Made by a program: the position numbers and the translations under genes
In this document: piece after piece, positions 4,613 to 52,392 of the stretch
Position numbering within the stretch: the first letter of the stretch is position 1
Layout: each line of letters begins with the position of its first letter
DNA from: an uncultured Acidobacteriota bacterium
GTDB taxonomy: Bacteria > Acidobacteriota > UBA6911 > RPQK01
DNA: 64,000 nucleotides
Assembly (NCBI GenBank): GCA_963744645.1
Contig: CAVUUN010000014.1
Location: forward strand, 1,308,976-1,372,975
Reading direction: 5' to 3'
The notes under the pieces: model-generated
The model's database searches: none
What the model was told of the DNA's origin: nothing
Seen by the model: only the letters and a program-made list of their open reading frames with translations

Positions 4613-4630
4613 AGGTAGAAGGAATTTCGG

Positions 4631-4744
4631 GGACACGAAACTTATTTCGGGGACATAACACTTAATTCCCAACCCGCTACCGGTGCTCTCTCCGGTTGCA
4701 AGGGAATTAAGTCTTGTGTCCCCGAAATTTCCCGAATGATGGAG
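4631..4744. repeat. Family B hairpin element: TTTCGGGGACATAACACTTAATTCCC, a loop of about 31 nt, then GGGAATTAAGTCTTGTGTCCCCGAAAT. It lies immediately upstream of the M16 start codon.
   Basis: Inverted repeat read from the sequence. The same element is at 23521..23867 (3 tandem units), 38193..38457 (2 units) and 50081..50193. Confidence 0.85.
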
Positions 4745-4749
4745 GAGGC

Positions 4750-6120
4750 ATGAAACGATTCTTTGTTGCGGCGTTTCTCTTGTGCATGGGAACCCTCTGG
4801 GCGCAAAACGCTCCTGTCAAGGTTCCCTACACCCGGTTCACGCTCCCCAATGGACTCACTGTAATTCTGCATGAGGATCACTCGGTGCCGCTGGTGAGTG
4901 TGAACACTTACTACCATGTCGGATCAGGACGTGAGAAGCCCGGGCGGACTGGCTTCGCACATCTCTTCGAACACCTGATGTTCGAGGGGTCCGCTAACGT
5001 CCCGGAAGGCAAGTTCGACGAATGGCTCGAGGCGGCCGGCGGTGACAACAACGGCTCGACGAATTCGGATCGCACCAACTACTGGATGGATGTCCCGCGC
5101 AACTCAATCGAGCTCCCCCTGTTTCTTGAATCCGACCGCATGGCCTACCTCTTGAAGACTATGACGGCGGCCACCGTGAACGGACAGCGGGACGTCGTCA
5201 AGAACGAGAGACGCCAGTCGTACGAAAACCGCCCGTACGGCATGTCCTCGATTCTCCTCTCCGAAAACCTGTACCCCGCTGATCATCCGTACCACTGGCC
5301 GACGATCGGCTCCATGGAAGACCTGTCGGCGGCGAGCTTCGAAGATGTCGTCGAGTTCTTCAAGCGGTACTACGGGCCCAACAACGCCAGCCTCGTGATC
5401 GGCGGCGATATCGACCCGGCCAAGACCCGGGCGGTGGTGACGAAGTGGTTCTCGGAAATTCCCGCCGGACCGCCGGTCCCGGCGTTTTTCGCGACTCCCC
5501 CGCGGCTGGCCGAAGAGAAACGCCTGCTGCTGGAGGACAAGGTCCAGTTGCCCCGTGTGTATATGGCATGGCTGACACCCGCCGCCTTCGCTCCGGGTGA
5601 TGCCGAGCTGGATGTGCTGGCCAGCGTGCTTGCCTCCGGAAAGAACTCCCGGCTCTATAAGCGTCTCGTCTACGAACTTCAGATCGCGCAGGACGTGGCC
5701 GCTTATCAGGCGACCGGGCAGCTTGGTTCCAGCTTCCGAATTATCGCGACGGCCCGCGCCGGCCACACTCTGTCTGAGTTGGAAGCGATCATCCAGGAAG
5801 AAATCGATCGCCTCAAGAAAGAGCCGCCCTCTTCGCGGGAGGTGGAACGCGTCGTCAATCAGATCGAAGCCGATTTTCTGTCGCGGATGGAACGGGTCGG
5901 GGGCTTCGGGGGCAAGGCCGATCAACTCAATTACTACTATACGGTCACCGGAAATCCGGACTATTTCAACGAGGATCTCGGCCGCTACAAGGCGCTCGCG
6001 CCCGAAGACGTAGCGAACGCGGCCCAGACCTATCTGCCCAACAATGCCCGGGTGATTCTGAGCGTTGTTCCCACCGGCAGGAAGGAACTGAGCGCAATGT
6101 CGGGAAAGGAGCAGAAGTAA
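4750..6120 (+). CDS. M16 family zinc metallopeptidase (active, HLFEH motif), secreted.
   Basis: RBS GGAGGAGG, a signal peptide, HLFEH, a downstream E and an NERRQ motif, and full-length two-domain M16 architecture. Confidence 0.9.
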   Translation: MKRFFVAAFLLCMGTLWAQNAPVKVPYTRFTLPNGLTVILHEDHSVPLVSVNTYYHVGSGREKPGRTGFAHLFEHLMFEGSANVPEGKFDEWLEAAGGDNNGSTNSDRTNYWMDVPRNSIELPLFLESDRMAYLLKTMTAATVNGQRDVVKNERRQSYENRPYGMSSILLSENLYPADHPYHWPTIGSMEDLSAASFEDVVEFFKRYYGPNNASLVIGGDIDPAKTRAVVTKWFSEIPAGPPVPAFFATPPRLAEEKRLLLEDKVQLPRVYMAWLTPAAFAPGDAELDVLASVLASGKNSRLYKRLVYELQIAQDVAAYQATGQLGSSFRIIATARAGHTLSELEAIIQEEIDRLKKEPPSSREVERVVNQIEADFLSRMERVGGFGGKADQLNYYYTVTGNPDYFNEDLGRYKALAPEDVANAAQTYLPNNARVILSVVPTGRKELSAMSGKEQK

Positions 6121-7635: not shown

Positions 7636-7819
7636 ATGGACAGAGTGGACAAAGTGGACAGATAGGACAAATCGCAGCCACCAGGTCCTATTCGTCCACC
7701 TTGTCCACTCTGTCCACCTTGTCCACTCGGCTTTTCGGCTCAGTTGTCAGTTGTCAGTTGTCAGTCGTCAGTTGTCAGTCGTCAGTTGTCAGTTGTCAGT
7801 CGTCAGTTGTCAGTCGTCG
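7636..7819. terminator. Palindrome (TGGACAGAGTGGACAAAGTGGACAGATAGGAC ... GTCCTATTCGTCCACCTTGTCCACTCTGTCCA) followed by a tandem heptamer array (GTTGTCA/GTCGTCA, about 11 units), between convergent genes.
   Basis: Perfect stem of about 32 bp plus heptanucleotide tandem repeats read from the sequence, located between the M16 (+) end and the ada (-) end. Confidence 0.6.
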
Positions 7820-20838: not shown

Positions 20839-21078
20839 GGGTTGCACGGGGGGCTGGGTTAGACGGTTCAGGGTTTGGGGGTTTGGGGGTTTGGAGGGTT
20901 CAGGGTTCAGGGTTCAGGGTTCGGGGTTCGGGGTTCGGGGTTGAGGAATTCAGTGTTCAGAAGTCAAGGAGTTCGGGGGTTCAGGTCTAACCGTCCAACC
21001 GTCTAACCGTCTAACCGTCTAACCGTCCAGCCCCCGAACTCAGAACTCAGAACTTCAGAACTCAGAACTTCGAGCTGT
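20838..21078. terminator. Imperfect 240-bp palindrome built from heptamer repeats (GGTTCAG/GGTTCGG ... CTAACCG ... GAACTCA), between convergent genes.
   Basis: Read from the sequence between the response regulator (+) end and the RRM gene (-) end. Confidence 0.55.
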
Positions 21079-23520: not shown

Positions 23521-23867
23521 GAATTTCGGGGACATGATACTCAATTCCCCCGCGCCTCCGGGGGGTGACAGTCGGCAAGGAATTGAGTTTCGTTTCCCCA
23601 AATTCCGCAAATTCGCGGTGAGACACCGAGAACGGAAGGGAGTCGCGTCGGAGTTTCGGGGACATGATACTCAATTCCCCCGCGCCTCCGGGCGGTGACA
23701 GTCGGCGAGGAATTGAGTTTCGTGTCCCCGAAATCCGCAAATTCGCGCTGTGAGACACCGAGAACGCAAGGGAGTCGCGTCGGAGTTTCGGGAGACAAAT
23801 ACTCAATTCCCTCGCACCCTTCGTGCACTCGCAGACCCAAAGGAATTGAGTTTACGTCCTCGAAACT
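23521..23867. repeat. Family B hairpin element in three tandem units (period about 122-133 bp), 220 bp upstream of radical SAM paralog 3.
   Basis: Units start at 23521, 23643 and 23776. Each contains TTTCGGGGACATGATACTCAATTCCC ... GGAATTGAGTTTCGT(G/T)TCCCCGAAAT. Confidence 0.85.
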
Positions 23868-28444: not shown

Positions 28445-28553
28445 TAGGATAGGACCTATAGGACCGATAGGACCGATAGGATCGGGGACCGGCTTTCGAG
28501 TCTTCTCCCATATGTCCTATTCGTCCTATACGTCCTATTCCTATTCCTGTTGC
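28443..28553. terminator. Palindrome of GATAGGAC-type repeats (ATAGGATAGGACCTATAGGACCGATAGGACCGATAGGATCGG ... TATGTCCTATTCGTCCTATACGTCCTATTCCTATTCCT).
   Basis: Read from the sequence between metW and the CBS gene. Confidence 0.55.
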
Positions 28554-29937: not shown

Positions 29938-31080
29938 ATGCGGTTTTCCACAAAAGCCATCCACGTCGGACAGAAACCGGACCCGGCCACCGGGGCAACG
30001 ATTCCTCCCATTCATCTCACTTCCACCTACACTCAGGAGTTGCCCGGGCGGCACAAGGGTTTCGAGTATTCCCGTTCAAACAATCCGACGCGCTCGGCTC
30101 TGGAACAGTGCCTGGCTTCTCTCGAAGAGGGAGAAGCATGTGCTGCCTTCAGCTCCGGCATAGCCGCCGCAGCTGCCGTTCTGCAGACGCTTCGCCCGGG
30201 AGATGGAGTAGTGGGCGGACATGACCTCTACGGCGGCACCGTCCGGCTCCTGACCCAGCATTTCGTCCCGTGGGGCCTGGAAGTAGCCTTCGCGGCCAGC
30301 ACCGAGCCGGATGCTTACGCCGAGGCGGCGAATTCGCTGTCGCGTCCCCGGCTGTTGTGGCTCGAGACGCCGAGCAACCCGCTTCTCGAGATCGTCGACA
30401 TTCGTGCCCTGGCCGCGTTGGGACAATCGCGCGACATGCGGGTGCTCGTCGACAACACGTTTGCTTCCCCGTACCTGCAGAAGCCTCTCGTCCTCGGCGC
30501 CGACCTCGTCCTGCACAGTACGACGAAGTACCTCGGCGGGCACTCGGACGTGATCGGCGGCGCGATCGTCGCCCGGAGTGTCGACCGGCTGGATCCCATT
30601 CGCTTTGTTCAGAACGCCGCAGGCGCCGTGCCCGGTCCGCTTGACTGCTACCTGGTTCAGCGCGGACTCAAGACCCTGGCCCTGCGAATGGAGCGGCACT
30701 GCCGCAATGCCCGGCACGTGGCCAAGATGTTGAGCAACCACCCGAAGGTCAAGCGTGTCCTTTACCCGGGGTTCCAGAATCACCCGGGACACCGGGTCGC
30801 AGCCGAGCAGATGTCAGGGATGGGCGGGATGGTCACGTTCGAGCTCGCGGACGGACCCGAAACTGTGGACGGTTTCTTCTCCCACCTGCAGTTGTTTTCG
30901 ACGGCCGAGAGCCTGGGAGGTGTCGAATCGCTCGCATCTCACCCGGCCTCGATGACCCACTCGAGTCTCACGCCGGAGCGAAGGAAGGCCGCGGGAATCA
31001 CCGACACGATGATCCGCTTGAGTGTCGGCATTGAAGATGTCGAGGACCTGCTGCGCGACCTGGAACGCGCGCTGCGGTAG
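29938..31080 (+). CDS. Cystathionine gamma-lyase / gamma-synthase family PLP enzyme.
   Basis: Cys_Met_Meta_PP family with the lysine region STTKYLGGHSD, immediately downstream of CBS (reverse transsulfuration pair). Confidence 0.85.
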   Translation: MRFSTKAIHVGQKPDPATGATIPPIHLTSTYTQELPGRHKGFEYSRSNNPTRSALEQCLASLEEGEACAAFSSGIAAAAAVLQTLRPGDGVVGGHDLYGGTVRLLTQHFVPWGLEVAFAASTEPDAYAEAANSLSRPRLLWLETPSNPLLEIVDIRALAALGQSRDMRVLVDNTFASPYLQKPLVLGADLVLHSTTKYLGGHSDVIGGAIVARSVDRLDPIRFVQNAAGAVPGPLDCYLVQRGLKTLALRMERHCRNARHVAKMLSNHPKVKRVLYPGFQNHPGHRVAAEQMSGMGGMVTFELADGPETVDGFFSHLQLFSTAESLGGVESLASHPASMTHSSLTPERRKAAGITDTMIRLSVGIEDVEDLLRDLERALR

Positions 31081-31555
31081 GTGGGAGTTCGGAGTTCTGA
31101 GTTCGGAGTTCTGAGTTCTGAGAAGGTGTGAAAAAATCGGTTTTGCTTGCGAAGACTCGGTTTTCGACCCCAAGGGGGTCGCGTAGCAAAGCCCAGGGTT
31201 GGCCGCGTTGTCTGCGGCCTACCCTGGGTCGGGGACCCCAGAGTTCAACCCTGAAAGGGTTGCGTATCATGCACATACGCAACCCTTTCAGGGTTGAGGC
31301 GTTTGCTACTGCCACCCAGGGTAGGCCGCAGACAACGCGGCCAACCCTGGGCTTTGCTGCGCGACCCCCTTGGGGTCGAAAACCCGTCTTTCGATTTCTT
31401 CACACCTTCTGAGTCTGGGTTCTGAGTTCGGAGTTCTGAGTTCTGGGTTTGGGTGGGTTTGCGGCCAGGCAACTTACGCTTCCTAACCTTGACTGAGAAC
31501 ACTGAACGAATGGAACCCAACTCAGAACTCAGAACTCAGAACTTAGAACTGCGCT
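31081..31555. repeat. Complex repeat: GAGTTCT/GAGTTCG heptamer arrays flanking a near-perfect palindrome of about 240 bp that contains a nested inner hairpin.
   Basis: Outer arms of about 70 bp (GGTTTTCGACCCCAAGGGGGTCGCGTAGCAAAGCCCAGGGTTGGCCGCGTTGTCTGCGGCCTACCCTGGGT) with 1 mismatch. Inner hairpin AACCCTGAAAGGGTTGCGTAT ... ATACGCAACCCTTTCAGGGTT. Inverted CAGAACT arrays lie at 31510..31550. Confidence 0.8.
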
Positions 31556-31646
31556 TTTCCCGAATCATTTGTGGTCGGGGCGGCGTCTAGGCAATTGACT
31601 GCCCGCAGCTTGCGGCGGAGGCGAGCGATATGAGACAAGAGAGCTG

Positions 31647-32708
31647 TTGGGGTGTCATCACATGAAACGAACTGAGGAAGGCCGGCACCGATTCCTGGCA
31701 GTCGAAATCCCGAGTGTCCTGCTCACCGTATTCTGCTTCTTCGCCTGCATTGTTGCGGCCCTTGCCCAGGTGCGAAGTGAGCCGCCTCGGCCCCGCTTCG
31801 GTGATTCAACGTTTTCGATCGAGGGGTCGGTCGTGGATGCGAAGGGTCGACCGGTTCAGCACGCCCGCCTGGTCCTGAATGTATTCGGCACCGAGGGGCA
31901 ACGCACCGATTTCTCGGACACAGACGGTCGGTTTATCTTCCGGAGACTTCCTGAAGGCAGCTACACCATGGACGTTTCCGCAGGCGGCTTCCAGTCAACC
32001 AAAGAGGAGATCCAGCTGGTCAGCGTCTCTCGCACGATCCGCATTGTCCTTACGCCTGGTGAGCGGTCCGAAGAGCGCCACCAGGGAGGGACCGAGAGTG
32101 TTTCGGCCGCGTCGTTACGGGTACCCAAGGAAGCCGAGAAGCTCTACAGGAAGGCCCTTCGTTCTCACACGGAAAAGCGCTATGACGAAGCCTTGAAGGA
32201 GTTCGACGAGGCGCTGAAGATAGCTCCGGACTTCGCGCGCGCCTACGCCGGCCGGGGCATTACACTGCTTCAAATGCAAAATCGGGCGGAAGCCAGAATC
32301 GCCTTCGAGAAGGCGGTTCGGCTCGATCCGGAATCCTTCGATGCTCAAGTGGGGCTGGGACTTGTCCTCAACGACTTGCGCGAGTTCCAAGCTTCGACCG
32401 AACACCTGTTGAAGGCACGGTCACTGAACAGCGCCGGGTGGCAGGTGCATTACGAGCTCGGGCGCGCGTACTTCGCCCTGGCAGACTACCCGGAAGCCGA
32501 AGCCAGCCTGAGGACCGCCCGGGCTTCCTCGCCCCATTATCCCGGCCTCTACCTGTTGCTTTCCAATCTTTATCTGAAGACCAACAGGCCGGCCGACGCG
32601 GTGAACGAGCTGCAGGGTTTCCTTAAGATGTTTCCTGACGGGCCAATGGCCGAACAGGTCCAGAAGAGAATCAAGTTGATCGGAGAGCGTGAGGCAACTG
32701 CGCACTGA
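31647..32708 (+). CDS. Secreted protein with a carboxypeptidase-regulatory-like (transthyretin-like) domain plus TPR repeats.
   Basis: N-terminal TM/signal segment, a CarbopepD_reg-like beta-sandwich (GSVVDAKGRPVQHARLVL...DGRFIFRRLPEGSY) and at least 4 TPR-like repeats. The true start may be 31662. Confidence 0.75.
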   Translation: MGCHHMKRTEEGRHRFLAVEIPSVLLTVFCFFACIVAALAQVRSEPPRPRFGDSTFSIEGSVVDAKGRPVQHARLVLNVFGTEGQRTDFSDTDGRFIFRRLPEGSYTMDVSAGGFQSTKEEIQLVSVSRTIRIVLTPGERSEERHQGGTESVSAASLRVPKEAEKLYRKALRSHTEKRYDEALKEFDEALKIAPDFARAYAGRGITLLQMQNRAEARIAFEKAVRLDPESFDAQVGLGLVLNDLREFQASTEHLLKARSLNSAGWQVHYELGRAYFALADYPEAEASLRTARASSPHYPGLYLLLSNLYLKTNRPADAVNELQGFLKMFPDGPMAEQVQKRIKLIGEREATAH

Positions 32709-32862
32709 CGACTGCGAACTGCTCACTACCCGCTGCGCACTGCGCACTACCCGGCTGACCGGCTGACCATTTGATCAGCCAGTGGGCGGTGGGCAGTTCG
32801 CAGTGCGCAGTGCGCAGTTCGTCAGTGCGCAGTGCGCAGCGGGCAGTTGTCAGTTGCTTTTG
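32709..32862. terminator. Palindrome of GCGCACT/CTGACCG heptamer repeats between convergent genes.
   Basis: ACTGCGCACTGCGCACTACCCGGCTGACCGGCTGACC ... GGTGGGCAGTTCGCAGTGCGCAGTGCGCAGT. Confidence 0.55.
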
Positions 32863-35842: not shown

Positions 35843-38221
35843 ATGACCGATCAGGAACCGGGCAGACCCACTCGCATCCTTCCTGCTCTTCCGATCGATC
35901 CTCGCCTCCCGGAGATCGTGTCCGTCCTACGGAAATATCGTCGTGCGGTGCTCGTTGCCCCGCCGGGCGCAGGCAAGACGACTCGTGTGGCGCCCGCCCT
36001 GATCGAAGAAGGACCCGTCATCCTCCTCCAGCCGCGCCGGGTGGCGGCCCGGTCAATAGCCGCGCGGATTGCGTCAGAACAGGGCTGGGAGATCGGTCGC
36101 GAGGTTGGCTGGCAAGTGCGATTTGAAAGACGGTTCGGACGCGAAACTCGACTACTCGTTTGCACCGAGGGCATCCTCACGAATCGTCTCCAGGCGGATC
36201 CTCTCCTGACCGGTTTCCGGACGGCGATCCTCGACGAGTTCCACGAGCGGAGTGTGCACGCCGATGTTGCACTCGCGCTCATGCGGGAAGCCGTGCGCGC
36301 CCGCGACGACCTGCAGCTTCTGGTGATGTCTGCCACCCTTGATGCCCGGGCGGTGTCCGATTACCTCGACGGCTGCCCGATGATCGAAGTCGAGGGACGA
36401 GCTCACCCGGTCGAGATCGGGTACGCTCCTCACACGTTTCCACAGTCAGCCATCACCGAGAGACTTGATCAGCCCGGAGGCCACATCCTTTGTTTTCTGC
36501 CCGGGGCGGGAGAGATCTCCAGGCTTGGCGAAGACCTGCGTGCCCGTGCCCGGCCCGGGGTGGCGATTCTTCCTCTTCATGGGACGCTCGAGGCGGCGGC
36601 GCAGGACCGGGCGCTGGCACCTTCTCGTGAACGGAAGGTCATCCTTGCCACGAATATCGCCGAAACTTCCTTGACCGTCGAAGGCGTCACCGATGTGATC
36701 GATACCGGCCTCCACAAGGTCCTTCGCTATGATTCACGCCGGGGAATCGACAGTCTGGAGCTTGAACGCATTCCGGCTGATTCAGCCGAACAGCGTGCCG
36801 GACGAGCTGGTAGGCTCGGACCCGGCCGCGCGCTCAGACTCTGGGATCCTCGGGAACGGCTCCGGCCGCATCGTGAAGCCGACATCCGGCGTATCGACCT
36901 GGCGGCGCCTTTCCTGGATGTGATTGCCTGGGGGGGAGACCCGCTCTCCCTTGACTGGTACGAGGCTCCGGCAAGGGAACGAGCAGAGTCCGCACTGGAA
37001 CTGCTCGATCGACTTGGCCTGGTCCGGGACGGGCGGCTGACCCCGCTCGGGGACATCGCGCACCGCCTGCCCCTCCATCCCAGGCTCGCCTGCATCCTCG
37101 TAAGTGCCGGAGGATCCCGGCGGGCCGCCGCAGTATGTGCCCTGCTCTCCGAGCGAGGACAATCCCACCCCGCTTTGCACGCGACCGATTCGGACATCCT
37201 GACCCTTGCAGATGAAATCGACATCGCGCCACCTCCTGTGCGCAACGTCGCGCTCGAAATCGAGCGGGTGGGCCGGTCGCTTCTCGGGCGCGGCGTCAAG
37301 ACCGACCCGTCAGAGGAAAGCCTGCTGAGAAGCATTCTGGCGGGTTTCCCTGACCGCGTGGCCCAGCGCCGGGAGCCCCGCTCTGCCCGCCTGCTCCTGG
37401 CGAGCGGGCATGGAGCGAGGCTGACCGCGGACAGCGGCGTCTGGGACGGGGAATACCTGGTCGCCCTTGACGTGATCGGAAGCGAAGCACGGGGCGTCAG
37501 CGAGGCGCTGGTTCGCCAGGCCAGCCGGATCGAGAAGCAATGGCTCCGGCCGACGTGCGTGGAAGTGAGGCACTGGTTCGATCCCGAAACCCGGGCAGTT
37601 AAGGCGGTCGAGCAAGTTCGTTACATGGCGCTCCTTCTGGCCGAACGTCCTGTCCCTCCCCATCCCGACGAATCCATCGACTTGCTCCTTGGAGCGTGGG
37701 CAAAAGAGCCGTTGGACGAGGCGTCCCGCACACTCGTTGCCCGGGCCCGAATGGCCGGCGTTTCGATTGACATGGAGGCGGCCAGGCGGGCCGCATGCGC
37801 GGGACGCGTGTCCCTTCCGCGGCTCGACCTGCATCTCAGTCTCAGTCACGCAGAGCGCCAGCTCCTGGATCGCCTCTGCCCCGAGTCGGTGCGGGTGCCG
37901 AGCGGCCGATCGATTCGACTCGAGTACGGGGATGACGGGATCGTCCGCCTCTCGGTTAAGCTTCAGGAACTGTTCGGGCTGGAGGAGGGGCCGCGTGTGG
38001 GACGCAACCAGGAACCGGTCCTGATCCATTTGCTCGCTCCCAACGGCCGGCCGGTCCAAACAACCACCGACCTGCGCAGTTTCTGGCAACGAACTTACCC
38101 GGAAGTGCGCAGAGAGTTGCGCGGACGGTATCCCAAACACCCTTGGCCGGAAGACCCGGCAGGCGCCGAGCCAACCGCCCGAGTGAAGAAGCGAGTTTCG
38201 GGGAGAGTTTCGGGGACATAA
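35843..38221 (+). CDS. hrpB: ATP-dependent RNA helicase HrpB (DEAH-box).
   Basis: Walker A APPGAGKTT, DEFHER, SATL, a helicase C domain, and the HA2 and HrpB C-terminal regions. The ORF-track entry 34619..38221 is extended upstream by antisense read-through of the preceding gene. Confidence 0.9.
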   Translation: MTDQEPGRPTRILPALPIDPRLPEIVSVLRKYRRAVLVAPPGAGKTTRVAPALIEEGPVILLQPRRVAARSIAARIASEQGWEIGREVGWQVRFERRFGRETRLLVCTEGILTNRLQADPLLTGFRTAILDEFHERSVHADVALALMREAVRARDDLQLLVMSATLDARAVSDYLDGCPMIEVEGRAHPVEIGYAPHTFPQSAITERLDQPGGHILCFLPGAGEISRLGEDLRARARPGVAILPLHGTLEAAAQDRALAPSRERKVILATNIAETSLTVEGVTDVIDTGLHKVLRYDSRRGIDSLELERIPADSAEQRAGRAGRLGPGRALRLWDPRERLRPHREADIRRIDLAAPFLDVIAWGGDPLSLDWYEAPARERAESALELLDRLGLVRDGRLTPLGDIAHRLPLHPRLACILVSAGGSRRAAAVCALLSERGQSHPALHATDSDILTLADEIDIAPPPVRNVALEIERVGRSLLGRGVKTDPSEESLLRSILAGFPDRVAQRREPRSARLLLASGHGARLTADSGVWDGEYLVALDVIGSEARGVSEALVRQASRIEKQWLRPTCVEVRHWFDPETRAVKAVEQVRYMALLLAERPVPPHPDESIDLLLGAWAKEPLDEASRTLVARARMAGVSIDMEAARRAACAGRVSLPRLDLHLSLSHAERQLLDRLCPESVRVPSGRSIRLEYGDDGIVRLSVKLQELFGLEEGPRVGRNQEPVLIHLLAPNGRPVQTTTDLRSFWQRTYPEVRRELRGRYPKHPWPEDPAGAEPTARVKKRVSGRVSGT

Positions 38222-38457
38222 ACTTAATTCCCGTGAACCTGCGGCAGCAGGTGAACGCTTTGGGAATTAAGTATTGTGTCCCCGAAACTCTCCCGAAACC
38301 CCCGAAAGTCGGGAAGCTTCGGTCGCCGGTGGTATATTGCTGCAGCCCTGCAAGGGAATGTCGGGGGAATGTCGGGGACACAAAACTTAATTCCTTTGCA
38401 AGCTCCTAACTTGATGGAAACGGTTTGGGAATTAAGTATTATGTCCCCGAGATTCCC
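38193..38457. repeat. Family B hairpin element in two tandem units, immediately upstream of the 38488 start codon.
   Basis: GAGTTTCGGGGACATAAACTTAATTCCC ... GGGAATTAAGTATTGTGTCCCCGAAAC, and a second unit ending GGAATTAAGTATTATGTCCCCGAGATTCCCC. Confidence 0.85.
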
Positions 38458-40992: not shown

Positions 40993-41162
40993 GCATAGCA
41001 TTCCACAAGAACCGCCGAGACGGGGAGATGATACAGTCTCCGGGCTCCGGGCACAATCTCTGGATCGACCCGGGTGGATGCGTCCTTCCGAGTGCGCAAG
41101 CTTGCTCGCGCTTTATACGGATCTTGGGATTCCGGTGGGCATGCACCTGCTTTCGGTTCGAA

Positions 41163-41319
41163 CCCGCTTGCTTCGCGGAAAGACGCTCGCGCGCGGCTCT
41201 GATGGGACTCGGCGAACACCGCGCAACCGCTCAGGCTCTATCGTAATACGAGTCATAGCAGGCGACACCGAGTCGTGTGTCAGAGCCGCGCGCGAGTGCT
41301 TTCCAGCGAAGCAAGCGGG
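41163..41319. repeat. Family A palindromic repeat element (copy 4).
   Basis: Arms CCCGCTTGCTTCGCGGAAAGACGCTCGCGCGCGGCTCTGA / GTCAGAGCCGCGCGCGAGTGCTTTCCAGCGAAGCAAGCGGG. Confidence 0.85.
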
Positions 41320-41529
41320 TTCGAACCGAAAGCAAAATTGCATACCCTAAGGTGTCTAACATGCATATAAGCAGAGCAAGGTTGCGCGCTCCAAGGCTCG
41401 CTTCGCTCGCAAACTTTCCTTGGGGCACTTTTCCGCTCACTTTTTCAACACCCCCTTGGGGGACGATTCTCGCGGTCCCTCCTGACAACTGACTTCGACT
41501 GCTGTATAAGAGAATCTTCAGGAGCGAAC

Positions 41530-47330: not shown

Positions 47331-47450
47331 CGGCCCGCGGATCTACGCGGATCTACGCGGATAATCGCGGATAAAGGCAGCCGACGTTTCATCGGCTGCC
47401 TTTATCCGCGATTATCCGCGTAGATCCGCGTAGATCCGCGGGCCGGTTCC
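47331..47450. terminator. Perfect stem palindrome of about 50 bp made of CGCGGAT heptamers; bidirectional terminator.
   Basis: CCGGCCCGCGGATCTACGCGGATCTACGCGGATAATCGCGGATAAAGGCAGCCGA, a loop, then its inverse. It lies between convergent glpC and DUF1080 genes and is the same heptamer family as 39495..39590. Confidence 0.75.
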
Positions 47451-48295: not shown

Positions 48296-48424
48296 CACTG
48301 ACAACTGACAACTGCCCGACTGGCAACCCTGACCGAAAAGCGCCCCCGTGCTCAGCCGTCGTGGGCAGTGCGCGGTCAGTGGTGGTCAGTCGCGTCAGTC
48401 GTCAGTGGTCAGTCGTCAGTCAAC
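48296..48424. terminator. Palindromic heptamer array (CTGACAA ... GTCAGTG/GTCGTCA) downstream of pgm.
   Basis: CACTGACAACTGACAACTGCCCGACTGG ... CAGTGGTCAGTCGTCAGTCA. Confidence 0.5.
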
Positions 48425-50080: not shown

Positions 50081-50193
50081 ATTTCGGGGACTCGACGATT
50101 TCGGGGACATAATACTTAATTCCCACCCCGTAACCACCGAACTCCGCGTGAGCAAAGGAATTAAGTATTATGTCCCCGAAATGCCCGAAATTG
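50081..50193. repeat. Family B hairpin element immediately upstream of the pgm start codon.
   Basis: ATTTCGGGGACATAATACTTAATTCCC, a loop, then GGAATTAAGTATTATGTCCCCGAAAT. Confidence 0.85.
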
Positions 50194-50238
50194 TGCCCGC
50201 TGCCTTCTGCCCGCCGCCCGCTGATTTCTGCCCGCTCT

Positions 50239-51627
50239 CTAGCTGCCCCCTGCCGGCTGCCCGCTGCCCGCTGATTTGGGGGCCAGCAGGCGAGCCAGCA
50301 GGAAGGCCATCTCCATCGCCTGTTCGTAGTTCAAGCGCGGGTCGACGTGAGTGCGGTAATCGCGCTGGAGATCCGCCTCGGTGATGCCGCTCGCCCCGCC
50401 CAGGCACTCAGTCACGTTCTCGCCGGTCAGCTCGAAGTGGACTCCGCCCAGGTGCGCTCCACACTCCTTCAGGATGAGACAGGACTGCTCGAGCTCGGAA
50501 ATGATCCGCTCAAAACGCCTGGTCTTCACGCCCCCCGAGGTCATCTCCGTATTCCCGTGCATCGGGTCGCAGCACCAGAGGACCTTCTTTCCGGCTCGCT
50601 CCACTGTCTCGACGAGGGGCGGCAGGCGGTCACCCACCTTGTCCGCTCCCATCCGGTGGATGAAGGTCAGACGGCCCGGCTCGTTGGTCGGGTTCAGAAC
50701 CGAACACAGGCAGATTGCCTCTTCGGGCGTGACGCCCGGCCCGATCTTGACGCCTATGGGGTTCGCGATTCCGCGGAAATACTCGACGTGAGCGCCGTCG
50801 ACATTTCGCGTCCGTTCGCCGATCCAGGGGAAATGAGTGGAGAGGTTGTACCAGCCCGGCCGGCGGGGCACCTGTCGTGTCTGGGCCTGTTCGTAGTAGA
50901 GGTGGAGTCCTTCGTGACTGGTAAAGAAGTCGACCCGGTTGATGTCGGAGGCATTGTGTCCGGTGAGCGTTTCCATGAAACGAAGCGACTCGCCGATCGA
51001 CTGCACAGTGCGCATGTACTCATTGGCCAGCGGGGATTTCGACACAAATCCGAGATCCCAATACTCGGGATGGTGAAGGTCCGCGAAACCGCCGTCGACC
51101 AGGGCGCGAATGAAATTTATCGTCAGGGCTGCCCGTCCCTGGGCCTTCACGAGCAGCTCAGGATTTGGCTCGCGGTCCTCGGGCCGGAATGCCGGCCGAT
51201 TCACCATGTCACCCCGGTAGCAAGGCAGGGTCACGCCGCCCCGGGTCTCCGTATCCGCCGATCGAGGCTTGGCGTACTGACCGGCAAAGCGTCCGACGCG
51301 GATCACCCTTCTTCTTCCTCCCTGGACCAGAACCAGGCTCATCTGGAGGAGGATCTTCAGCTTACGAGTAATCGCGCTCGGCTCGCAGTCTTCAAAACTC
51401 TCGGAGCAATCCCCTCCCTGGAGCATGAAGCGCTCACCTGCGGCCGCTTCCGCCAGCTGTGACTTCAGCTTCTCGATCTCCCAACTGGTGACAAGCGGAG
51501 GGAGTTTGGCTAACTGGAGAAGCGCGGTCTGCAGCGCAGCCTGATCCTTATATTTGGGTTGTTGCGTCGCCGGTCGACTCTGCCAGGATGTCGGTGTCCA
51601 GGTGGAACCTGGTTGGATTGGGTCCAT
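50239..51627 (-). CDS. 3-deoxy-7-phosphoheptulonate (DAHP) synthase, class II.
   Basis: AroAII family ([14 protein letters not shown], cysteine motif). An alternative start is at 51672. The last ~12 residues ([13 protein letters not shown]) are read out of a CTGCCCG heptamer array (50200..50283) and may not be real. Confidence 0.85.
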
Positions 51628-52024: not shown

Positions 52025-52392
52025 ATCCTGACCGGCTCACCAGCTGACCGGCTGACCAGATCGTTGCGCACTGCGCGCTTCGCACTGCGCACTTCAACTG
52101 GGCTAAGGGACGACCAGTCGGCGAGGTCAGAAGGGTGGGGGAGGTATGTAGTACCGGCTTCAGCCGGTCGAACCGTCGGCAATCTCGATTGTCCGAGCGC
52201 CGAACTCGGGCACGAGCTGGCTTGCGGCGGTACTACGAACCTCGTCAGTCCGTCAGCTCGTCAGCCTCTCAGCCGGTCAGCCGGTCAGCCGGTTAGTGGT
52301 CAGTCGTCAGTAGTTTAGTCGTCAGTGGTCAGCCGGTCAGCTCGGTTAGCCGGTCAGCTCGTCAGCCGGTCAGCCGGTCAGTCGTCAGTGTT
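52025..52392. terminator. Two palindromic heptamer-repeat blocks (CTGACCGG / GCGCACT / CGTCAGT families) between convergent genes.
   Basis: 52025..52100 shares the CTGACCGGCTGACC and GCGCACTGCGCAC modules with 32709..32862. 52236..52392 contains GTCAGCC/GTCAGTC arrays. Confidence 0.5.

Follow-up and report, generated by a model that had tools for sequence, protein, structure and literature searches.

IS200/IS605 insertion sequences and their gene-less derivatives (PATEs) have imperfect hairpins near their ends, which are not inverted repeats of each other, and they insert in a fixed orientation beside a short specific sequence; the insertion sequences pass through a single-stranded circular intermediate and target the lagging strand. 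Within the wider set of TnpA-Y1 proteins, those of subclass 1.2 are accompanied by no REP (repetitive extragenic palindromic) sequence, number about 1.7 copies per genome, and occur mainly in Cyanobacteria and Bacteroidetes; they are recognized by DH[IV]H, WQ, and YIKNQKEHH-like (Y---Q--HH) motifs, a median length near 148 aa, and a specific C-terminal tail (Quentin et al. 2018, PMC6006769, Table 1). Intergenic repeats of 7-nt units, some of them inverted, are known to be over-represented and have been described as (GGGAATC)n in Xanthomonas and as STRR in Nostoc and Calothrix (PMC4692102), and as TAACTGA repeats in Beggiatoaceae, Cyanobacteria, and Bacteroidetes (PMC4679880). The subject here is a locus that bears on both: a complex of heptamer arrays and nested palindromes at positions 31081-31555 of a 64,000-nucleotide stretch of DNA (the window) from an uncultured Acidobacteriota bacterium (contig CAVUUN010000014.1). 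It is preceded by the stop codon of a transsulfuration gene (Cys_Met_Meta_PP, 29938-31080) and followed by the start, at 31662, of a CarboxypepD_reg/TPR gene on the same strand.

The complex consists of two independent layers, a hairpin of inverted heptamer arrays that is native to the locus and a 288-bp palindrome inserted into its left array. The palindrome is, I believe with good confidence, a gene-less element made of the fused ends of an approximately 1-kb element that carries a subclass 1.2 Y1 transposase. The first of these statements comes from a comparison of strains. A metagenome contig of 508 kb from ENA (L001) encodes the upstream protein and is 99.2-99.6% identical to positions 19930-41377 of the window, and between the same two genes it has only a left array, a loop of 84 nt, and a right array, forming by themselves a strong hairpin (-99.5 kcal/mol, z = -11.6). 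Since nothing but array-loop-array is there, the palindrome must be an insertion into a pre-existing array hairpin. The initial annotation of the window had described heptamer arrays on both sides, an inverted array at the far right, a nested palindrome, and an inner hairpin, all of which are in the sequence within slightly shifted limits; it had also taken them for a single composite structure, and there the components stand and the unity does not.

In the window, the first part of the left array (L1, 31084-31121, plus strand), about 5.5 copies of GAGTTCK, begins 3 nt past the stop codon and is identical in L001. The second part (L2, 31410-31449, plus strand) continues L1 in phase once the element and 3 nt are subtracted, one of its units having 6 nt, and the left array as a whole is longer in the window than in L001. 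The right array (R, 31516-31553, minus strand), 4.6 copies of AACTCAG, is inverted and pairs with both L1 and L2. Tandem Repeats Finder counts 5.6 copies of the heptamer GAGTTCK (unit GGAGTTC) at 31084-31122, another 6.3 at 31407-31449, and, for the inverted AACTCAG, 4.6 at 31519-31550. If up to two mismatches are allowed, the window has 15 occurrences of the heptamer dimer GAGTTCTGAGTTC, where 1.9 are expected, and none of 100 shuffles reached that number. Folded as RNA, the whole region gives -350 kcal/mol (z = -29.6).

The inserted element (31122-31409) begins 42 nt downstream of the stop codon, has no counterpart in L001, and belongs to a dispersed Acidobacteriota repeat family. It is non-coding, overlapped only by chance open reading frames (ORFs), and its 288 nt folded alone as DNA give -152 kcal/mol (z = -23.9). 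At its left end is the terminal inverted repeat GAAGGTGTGAAAAAATCG (31122-31139, plus strand) and at its right end GAAGGTGTGAAGAAATCG, as read on the minus strand (31392-31409), identical to the left at 17 of 18 positions. Outside these lie two copies of the trinucleotide TGA (TCA on the minus strand), at 31119-31121 and 31410-31412. The central palindrome reported initially is real, with arms of 71 nt (31159-31229 and 31314-31384) that are 99% complementary, though its size of 240 bp was an underestimate: with the outer inverted repeat (31118-31139 and 31392-31413) it spans about 290 bp. From left to right the core reads A, linker, B, variable region, C, variable region, B', linker', A'. Hairpin A (31165-31181) is CGACCCC AAG GGGGTCG, and hairpin B (31192-31228) is CCCAGGGT T GGCCGC, a 7-nt loop, and GCGGCC T ACCCTGGG, with a near-invariant T.T mismatch. 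The central hairpin C (31245-31297) has a stem of 23 bp, its arms (31245-31267 and 31275-31297) fully complementary over 23 nt, and a loop of 7 nt. Hairpin B' (31315-31351), the mirror of B, has a near-invariant A.A mismatch and includes GTAG, and hairpin A' (31362-31378) mirrors A.

It is hairpin C that betrays the origin of the element. In the parents a Y1 gene lies between its two halves. Four copies (L003, L005, L010, and L018) retain, between the halves, the 3' remnant of a gene, ...FQDEFRALLRKHGLEWDERYVWD, with the consensus ...QEERHKKATFQDEFRALLRKHGLEWDERY[VLI]WD, and the differences amongst them are synonymous or conservative. Pfam and NCBIfam give no hit with this remnant of 23-39 aa, because the tail lies beyond the domain models, but its relatives in the databases have the PF01797 domain and are annotated as RayT or REP-associated tyrosine transposase (RAYT). 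The context of two RayT fragments (P0009 and P0002), within type I restriction-modification operons, is uninformative. A scan of metagenomes for a stop codon with the right half of C directly after it found 39 loci. L063 and L086 have an intact gene for a 151-aa protein within the same flanking modules; relative to the stop, the B motifs are at -588 and +74. The product scores 73.4 bits as Pfam Y1_Tnp (PF01797), where the cut-off is 23. The arms of the window element align with the flanks of these two genes over about 110 nt at 85-90% column identity. In L021, which comes from the metagenome-assembled genome (MAG) with the most copies of the family, the left flank runs into the first 21 codons of the Y1 gene. 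More generally, when the fetched metagenome loci are searched with a profile of the core, nearly every full-length Y1 gene that can be evaluated proves to have an arm to its left and to its right, although the proteins are only 50-59% identical to that of L063, and in L049, L060, and L072 the stem of B covaries (CCCAGGGT/ACCCTGGG becoming CCCAACGT/ACGTTGGG) with the mismatch kept. As judged by these alignments, the palindrome descends from the flanks of a Y1 gene.

The parent protein has DHVH, WQ, and YILEQEERH motifs (YIRTQKEHH and YIEGQEEHH in relatives), 151 aa, and a conserved C-terminal tail. Read by eye against the published table in L063, L086, and 13 further full-length relatives, these features make the parent gene an apparent match to the IS200-like Y1 (HUH) transposases of TnpA-Y1 subclass 1.2. 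Filing the system instead as a TIRtron was considered and rejected, since the TIRYT proteins that Di Nocera et al. reported from Acidobacteria are a different Y1 group, with C-termini like those of RAYT. Heptamer or octamer arrays (TCATTGA-like, AACTGAT) lie just outside the flanking modules of some full-length subclass 1.2 Y1 genes on unrelated metagenome contigs, namely L060 (323-359 and 1205-1235) and L080 (1550-1586). Such arrays are frequent beside the Y1 genes of the metagenome loci, a frequency that is not systematic and has no usable control.

The hairpins of the element are conserved as hairpins. Folding and covariation analysis had been suggested when the structure was first noticed, and besides the strong fold, an alignment of 24 copies has the five local hairpins 96.9% paired, with 15 pairs changed on both sides, a count reached in none of 500 shuffles. 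When one partner is slid by 1-3 columns, pairing drops to 30-52%. Changes in the stems of B and A' are compensated within their own arm, thereby breaking the pairing from arm to arm: column pairs 46-63 and 225-233, for example, are compensated, as compared with the long-range pairs 46-196 and 12-233. It follows that the conserved unit is the local hairpin rather than the long palindrome. The T.T mismatch of B and the A.A mismatch of B' are retained in nearly all 24 copies, and GTAG in B' (GGGTAGGCCGC) is nearly invariant, its position being within the extended stem at the A.A mismatch and not at the free foot. Retained mismatches in conserved local hairpins fit recognition by a protein of imperfect hairpins. 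An RNA structure would fit equally well.

The element is not peculiar to this locus. The proposed search for the arm in other places proved fruitful: a 22-mer from it is found in 42 stretches of the genome collection, all from four Acidobacteriota MAGs and about 31 of them from one. In many of the 42, the arm is no more than about 200 nt away from the end of a contig. Full-length copies of the window type have common termini (GAAGGTGTGAAARAATCG ... CGATTYTTTCACACCTTC), that in L035 being 93% identical to that of the window over 297 nt, and the 18-nt terminal repeat is shared with 26 termini at other loci. Other subfamilies have only a core of about 215 nt in common, their outer parts differing (GAGGGTGTCGAAAAAGTC-type or CATAAGCGCT-type ends). 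Neither the window nor L001 has a second copy detectable by low-stringency blastn or by profile search. Of the natures first suggested for the structure, a MITE-like element (miniature inverted-repeat transposable element) therefore describes the central palindrome well, given that it has terminal inverted repeats, is missing at this site from a near-identical strain, and has its arm in 42 stretches of related genomes.

Two further groups of copies deserve mention. Sister elements of about 265 bp (L004 7519-7784, L009 4072-4336, and L034 1204-1472), bounded by a terminal repeat of the window element's kind (GAGGGYGTCGAATAAGTT), have its hairpin architecture with different hairpin sequences, which suggests a second lineage of the same type of element. 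Copies of the GAGGGTGTCG type (L017 172-470, L024 7377-7676, and L002 about 1455-1790) are centred in another palindrome (GGAGCGCGGAC ... GTCCGCGCTCC), with GTCYC on both sides and, in three of three, one orientation; this subfamily seems to have a different target.

How does the element choose its sites? Its two ends are alike in their terminal repeats but differ in how far the repeat is from hairpin A: 20 nt at the short-linker end (on the right in the window) and 31-32 nt at the long-linker end (on the left). All 23 termini typed in this way have identical 3-nt flanks, TCA or TGA: TCA adjoins the short-linker end in nine of nine cases and TGA the long-linker end in 14 of 14. These figures represent at least 14 independent insertions in a single orientation with respect to the TCA strand, a result expected by chance about once in 8,000. 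Removal of the element plus 3 nt restores the phase of the heptamers in L015, L016, L035, L039, and L040, and comes close to doing so in the window. In a test for period-7 identity, 13 of 24 termini have flanks that reach 0.7 or more, as compared to 0.4% of random 28-mers, showing that the element has a strong preference for heptamer arrays. Two readings fit the identical 3-nt flanks: either they are the 3-bp duplication left by a DDE transposase, or the element inserts 3' of TCA and itself ends in TCA.

I propose that the second reading is correct. The parent would be an element of about 1 kb that encodes the 151-aa Y1 transposase, each of its ends made up of hairpin A, hairpin B, and half of hairpin C. 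Deletion of the gene would bring the two ends together as a long palindrome, comparable to a REPIN or a MITE. The enzyme, recognizing the imperfect hairpins, would then move the gene-less element in trans as single-stranded DNA, cleaving, in the manner of IS200/IS605, after TCA in the target and after the TCA at the element's own 3' terminus. With the left and right cleavage sites alike, the outcome would mimic a 3-bp target duplication. The insertion mode of IS200/IS605 elements (IS608, ISDra2) is the basis for this reading of TCA. Insertion of the Y1 type is favored because the orientation is fixed, because conservation is seen in the internal hairpins and variation in the terminal repeats, and because the parentage is Y1. 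Taken separately from the ancestry of the palindrome, the claim that the Y1 enzyme is what mobilizes the element seems to me somewhat better than an even bet.

Several facts weigh against it. IS200/IS605 elements normally have neither terminal inverted repeats nor identical 3-nt flanks, and the two together are also what is classically expected of a DDE transposase. Hairpin A begins about 40 nt from the end of the element, farther than in IS608. The 151-aa product falls below the NCBIfam cut-offs both for IS200 (NF033573, 48 versus 55) and for RAYT (REP_Tyr_transpos, 17.7 versus 80). No Y1 gene was found in the 64-kb window or in L001, and no autonomous partner was found with ends identical to those of the window element: the gene-bearing L021, L063, and L086 share the inner modules of about 110 nt and differ in their ends from the GAAGGTGTG terminal repeat of the window subfamily. 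Finally, two copies of the L063-type subfamily, the one with the gene or its remnant, have longer flanking direct repeats, that in L005 (about 4815-5245) of 17 nt (CGGCCGCCCAAATCCGG) and that in L086 (reverse complement, about 436-1395) of 9 nt (GGCTTTGCC) within a terminator-like hairpin, both in contrast to the 3-nt flanks of the window subfamily.

The same mobile element might have been moved by a DDE transposase (IS5 family, IS1031-like) acting on the 18-bp terminal repeats with a 3-bp staggered cut at T-S-A, and in that event the Y1 hairpins would be inherited cargo. I think this rather unlikely. The nearly identical terminal repeats start with GAA or GAG; in the IS1031 group the ends start with GAG and the direct repeats are 3 bp. 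Elements of that group are reported to recognize three nucleotides as their insertion site (PMC2516522). The trinucleotide flanks at the typed termini and the return of array phase upon removal of the element speak for it too, as do the sister elements, which combine GAGGGTGTCGAA-type terminal repeats with different internal hairpins. However, the 556 kb of fetched loci contain no DDE gene and no pair of terminal repeats at the size of a transposase gene; a search of them for inverted pairs at the spacing of an insertion sequence gave only MITEs of about 265-300 bp and the A hairpins around Y1 genes. ORFs close to solitary terminal-repeat hits in L012 and L020 are, judged by eye, not transposase-like. 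A symmetric synapse on near-identical ends should produce both orientations, and the orientation is invariant. Moreover, a MITE dependent on its terminal repeats is expected to conserve them and let its interior drift, and across subfamilies it is the internal hairpins that are conserved, with compensatory changes, and the terminal repeats that vary.

A function as host RNA, be it a structured noncoding RNA (the first nature suggested for the structure) or a 3' stabilizer or terminator in the untranslated region of the upstream transsulfuration operon, is unlikely. To be sure, the predicted structure is very strong, its local hairpins covary, and it sits just past a stop codon between two genes of the same strand. 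Yet Rfam at gathering thresholds has no hits in the whole window, and with E-values up to 10 in the region only generic long-hairpin models (miRNA precursors) appear, the best being MIR820 at 51.6 bits against a threshold of 196. A scan of 30900-31800 for promoters and terminators found no site, and none in the orientation that the spacer has in the window. The palindrome is missing at this site in a 99.5%-identical strain, is dispersed at unrelated loci, is so dyad-symmetric that both strands fold alike, and has the flanks of a transposase gene as its ancestors. As the primary nature of the element a structured RNA is therefore not supported, and a secondary effect on mRNA stability or termination could still accompany it.

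The array hairpin could, in its turn, be a programmed inverton, regulating the downstream CarboxypepD_reg/TPR gene. The loop between the arrays (31450-31515, about 66 nt) is indeed inverted in the window relative to L001, with breakpoints inside the inverted arrays, so that a recombination site, as the initial annotation offered among its possibilities, is right in the loose sense that the arrays have evidently recombined, and in no other. A programmed switch is quite unlikely, however. The scan just mentioned turned up nothing promoter-like in the window's orientation, no invertase gene is adjacent, and the two versions of the spacer, roughly 90% identical by eye, have diverged by about 10%, too much for a recent on/off flip. 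Recombination between inverted arrays is the simplest explanation of the inversion, and homologous recombination between inverted repeats of 35-40 bp suffices for it. A look-up of the downstream protein, aimed at further strain variants of the locus, found it not on record. As for a recent local product, whether by slippage, by inverted duplication, or as an artefact of assembly, its chances are negligible, even with arms 99% complementary in a repeat-rich and strain-variable region, for the palindrome is unrelated in sequence to the surrounding DNA, is cleanly bounded by TGA on each side, and has its arm in 42 stretches of other genomes and full-length copies with common termini.

Returning to the arrays, the window has at least eight hairpins of inverted tandem arrays with units of 7-10 nt, each locus having its own unit. 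Besides the one described, they are at 7637-7818, 20865-21071, 28448-28548, 32697-32854, 47336-47440, 48297-48421, and 52028-52381 (and 50194-50309), with such unit pairs as TGGACAGAG/GTCCACCTT, GATAGGACC/GTCCTATTC, ACTGCGC/CAGTGCG, CGCGGATCTA/ATCCGCGTAG, and CTGACCGG/GTCAGCCG, the last repeated 17 times. Differences between the window and L001 concentrate in repeat arrays generally, and inverted-array hairpins are the main sites where the two differ. The only close ortholog contig of the locus (L087, which is short) is 89% identical, and just past the transsulfuration stop codon (1455-1570) it has a different inverted array, of 9-mers (GGACANNGT / GTCCACNNT), resembling the one at 7637-7728 of the window. 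It would appear from this comparison that the position of the array is kept while its sequence turns over.

Two other palindromes in the window are worth recording. Members of a second family (GAGTTTCGGGGACAyAAwACTTAATTCCC ... GGGAATTAAGT..TGTCCCCGAAACTC; 14 motif hits versus 1.6 expected) are at 4625-4727, 23524-23865, 38196-38287, 38370-38452, and 50082-50181, one locus having a 130-bp unit 2.6 times in tandem. The GGGGACA[CT] in this family fits the consensus GGGG[AT][CG]A[CG] reported for inverted repeats around genes of TIRYT (subclass 2.1 Y1). A third palindrome, at 41148-41334 (55-nt arms, 91% complementary), is present in L001 as well, and the sequence that follows it (41438-41455) resembles the outer terminal repeat of the element family (GGGGGTGTTGAAAAAGTG, minus strand).

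What might all this mean? Mobile palindromes are tied here to intergenic heptamer repeats, and within one species a hairpin built of repeats can be seen to change through insertion, inversion, and alteration of array length. In practical terms, long nested palindromes between genes of Acidobacteriota can be the collapsed flanks of transposase genes and not RNA genes, which matters for their annotation; the family is of relevance to assembly, too, because so many copies are at the ends of contigs. The element further offers an orphan subclass of HUH enzymes a candidate substrate, with defined ends, hairpins, and a putative cleavage site at TCA. A bolder and rather improbable idea is that subclass 1.2 Y1 proteins are active single-strand DNA enzymes with REPtron-like cognate hairpins and a TCA cleavage motif, for which heptamer arrays are preferred landing pads and perhaps in part products. 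Each unit of the commonest heptamer arrays has a TCA, and cleavage and rejoining between repeated TCA sites might be how arrays form. If this were true, it could explain why heptamer repeats (STRR and TAACTGA) and subclass 1.2 genes are both reported mainly from Cyanobacteria and Bacteroidetes, as well as the presence of the two here in Acidobacteriota.

A limited search of the literature found no prior description of such an element, and it remains to set it beside the systems that have been described. Closest in its working is the REPIN/REPtron (Bertels & Rainey 2011, PMC3116915; Quentin et al. 2018, PMC6006769): a REPIN likewise has no gene and is an inverted doublet of imperfect hairpins, which together fold into a long one, the same hairpins stand inverted around a Y1/HUH gene, the doublets are many and the gene copies few, and the hairpin has a conserved mismatch. 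The hairpin also has a GTAG, though inside the extended stem, where a REP has GT[AG]G at the 5' foot. However, the enzyme here is not a RAYT, as its score indicates, and its tyrosine motif, YI..Q..(R/H)H, is of the class 1 type, as opposed to YI..NP. Furthermore, half of the element comprises two and a half hairpins (about 110 nt), where half of a REPIN is one REP of 20-40 nt, and the 18-bp terminal repeats and the identical 3-nt flanks are extra. Subclass 1.2 as described (PMC6006769) differs in that the genes here are flanked by long inverted hairpin modules, which have multiplied without the gene in Acidobacteriota.

With IS200/IS605 the element shares an enzyme of the Y1_Tnp family, imperfect hairpins near the ends, and insertion of specific orientation (the TCA rule), but its ends are inverted repeats of each other, its hairpins are some 40 nt inward, and the parent protein is under the NCBIfam cut-off for IS200. 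In looks it is closest to the classical MITEs (Correia/NEMIS, ERIC, RUP; PMC3733652), which are non-coding, 70-300 bp long, bounded by terminal inverted repeats and short flanking direct repeats, intergenic, multicopy, and polymorphic in their presence from strain to strain. They part company over the interior, which here comes from the flanks of a Y1 gene and not from a DDE insertion sequence and is conserved with compensatory changes, and over the strand-specific insertion. The arrays, for their part, are like the known heptamer repeats (PMC4692102, PMC4679880) in having 7-nt units, in being confined to intergenic DNA, in varying in length among close relatives, and in sometimes forming stem-loops of inverted pairs, and the units CAACTGA and GACTGAC resemble TAACTGA (PMC4679880); unlike the known repeats, those here are mostly inverted pairs with a unit specific to the locus, and they serve as landing sites for a palindromic element. 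The element, then, is REPIN-like in how it works and MITE-like in how it looks. Its enzyme sets it apart from REPIN/RAYT, and the want of an autonomous partner with its ends among the loci searched sets it apart from the classical MITEs. The best name for it is that of a palindromic, gene-less derivative of a subclass 1.2 Y1 element, inserted in a specific orientation next to TCA, mostly within heptamer arrays.

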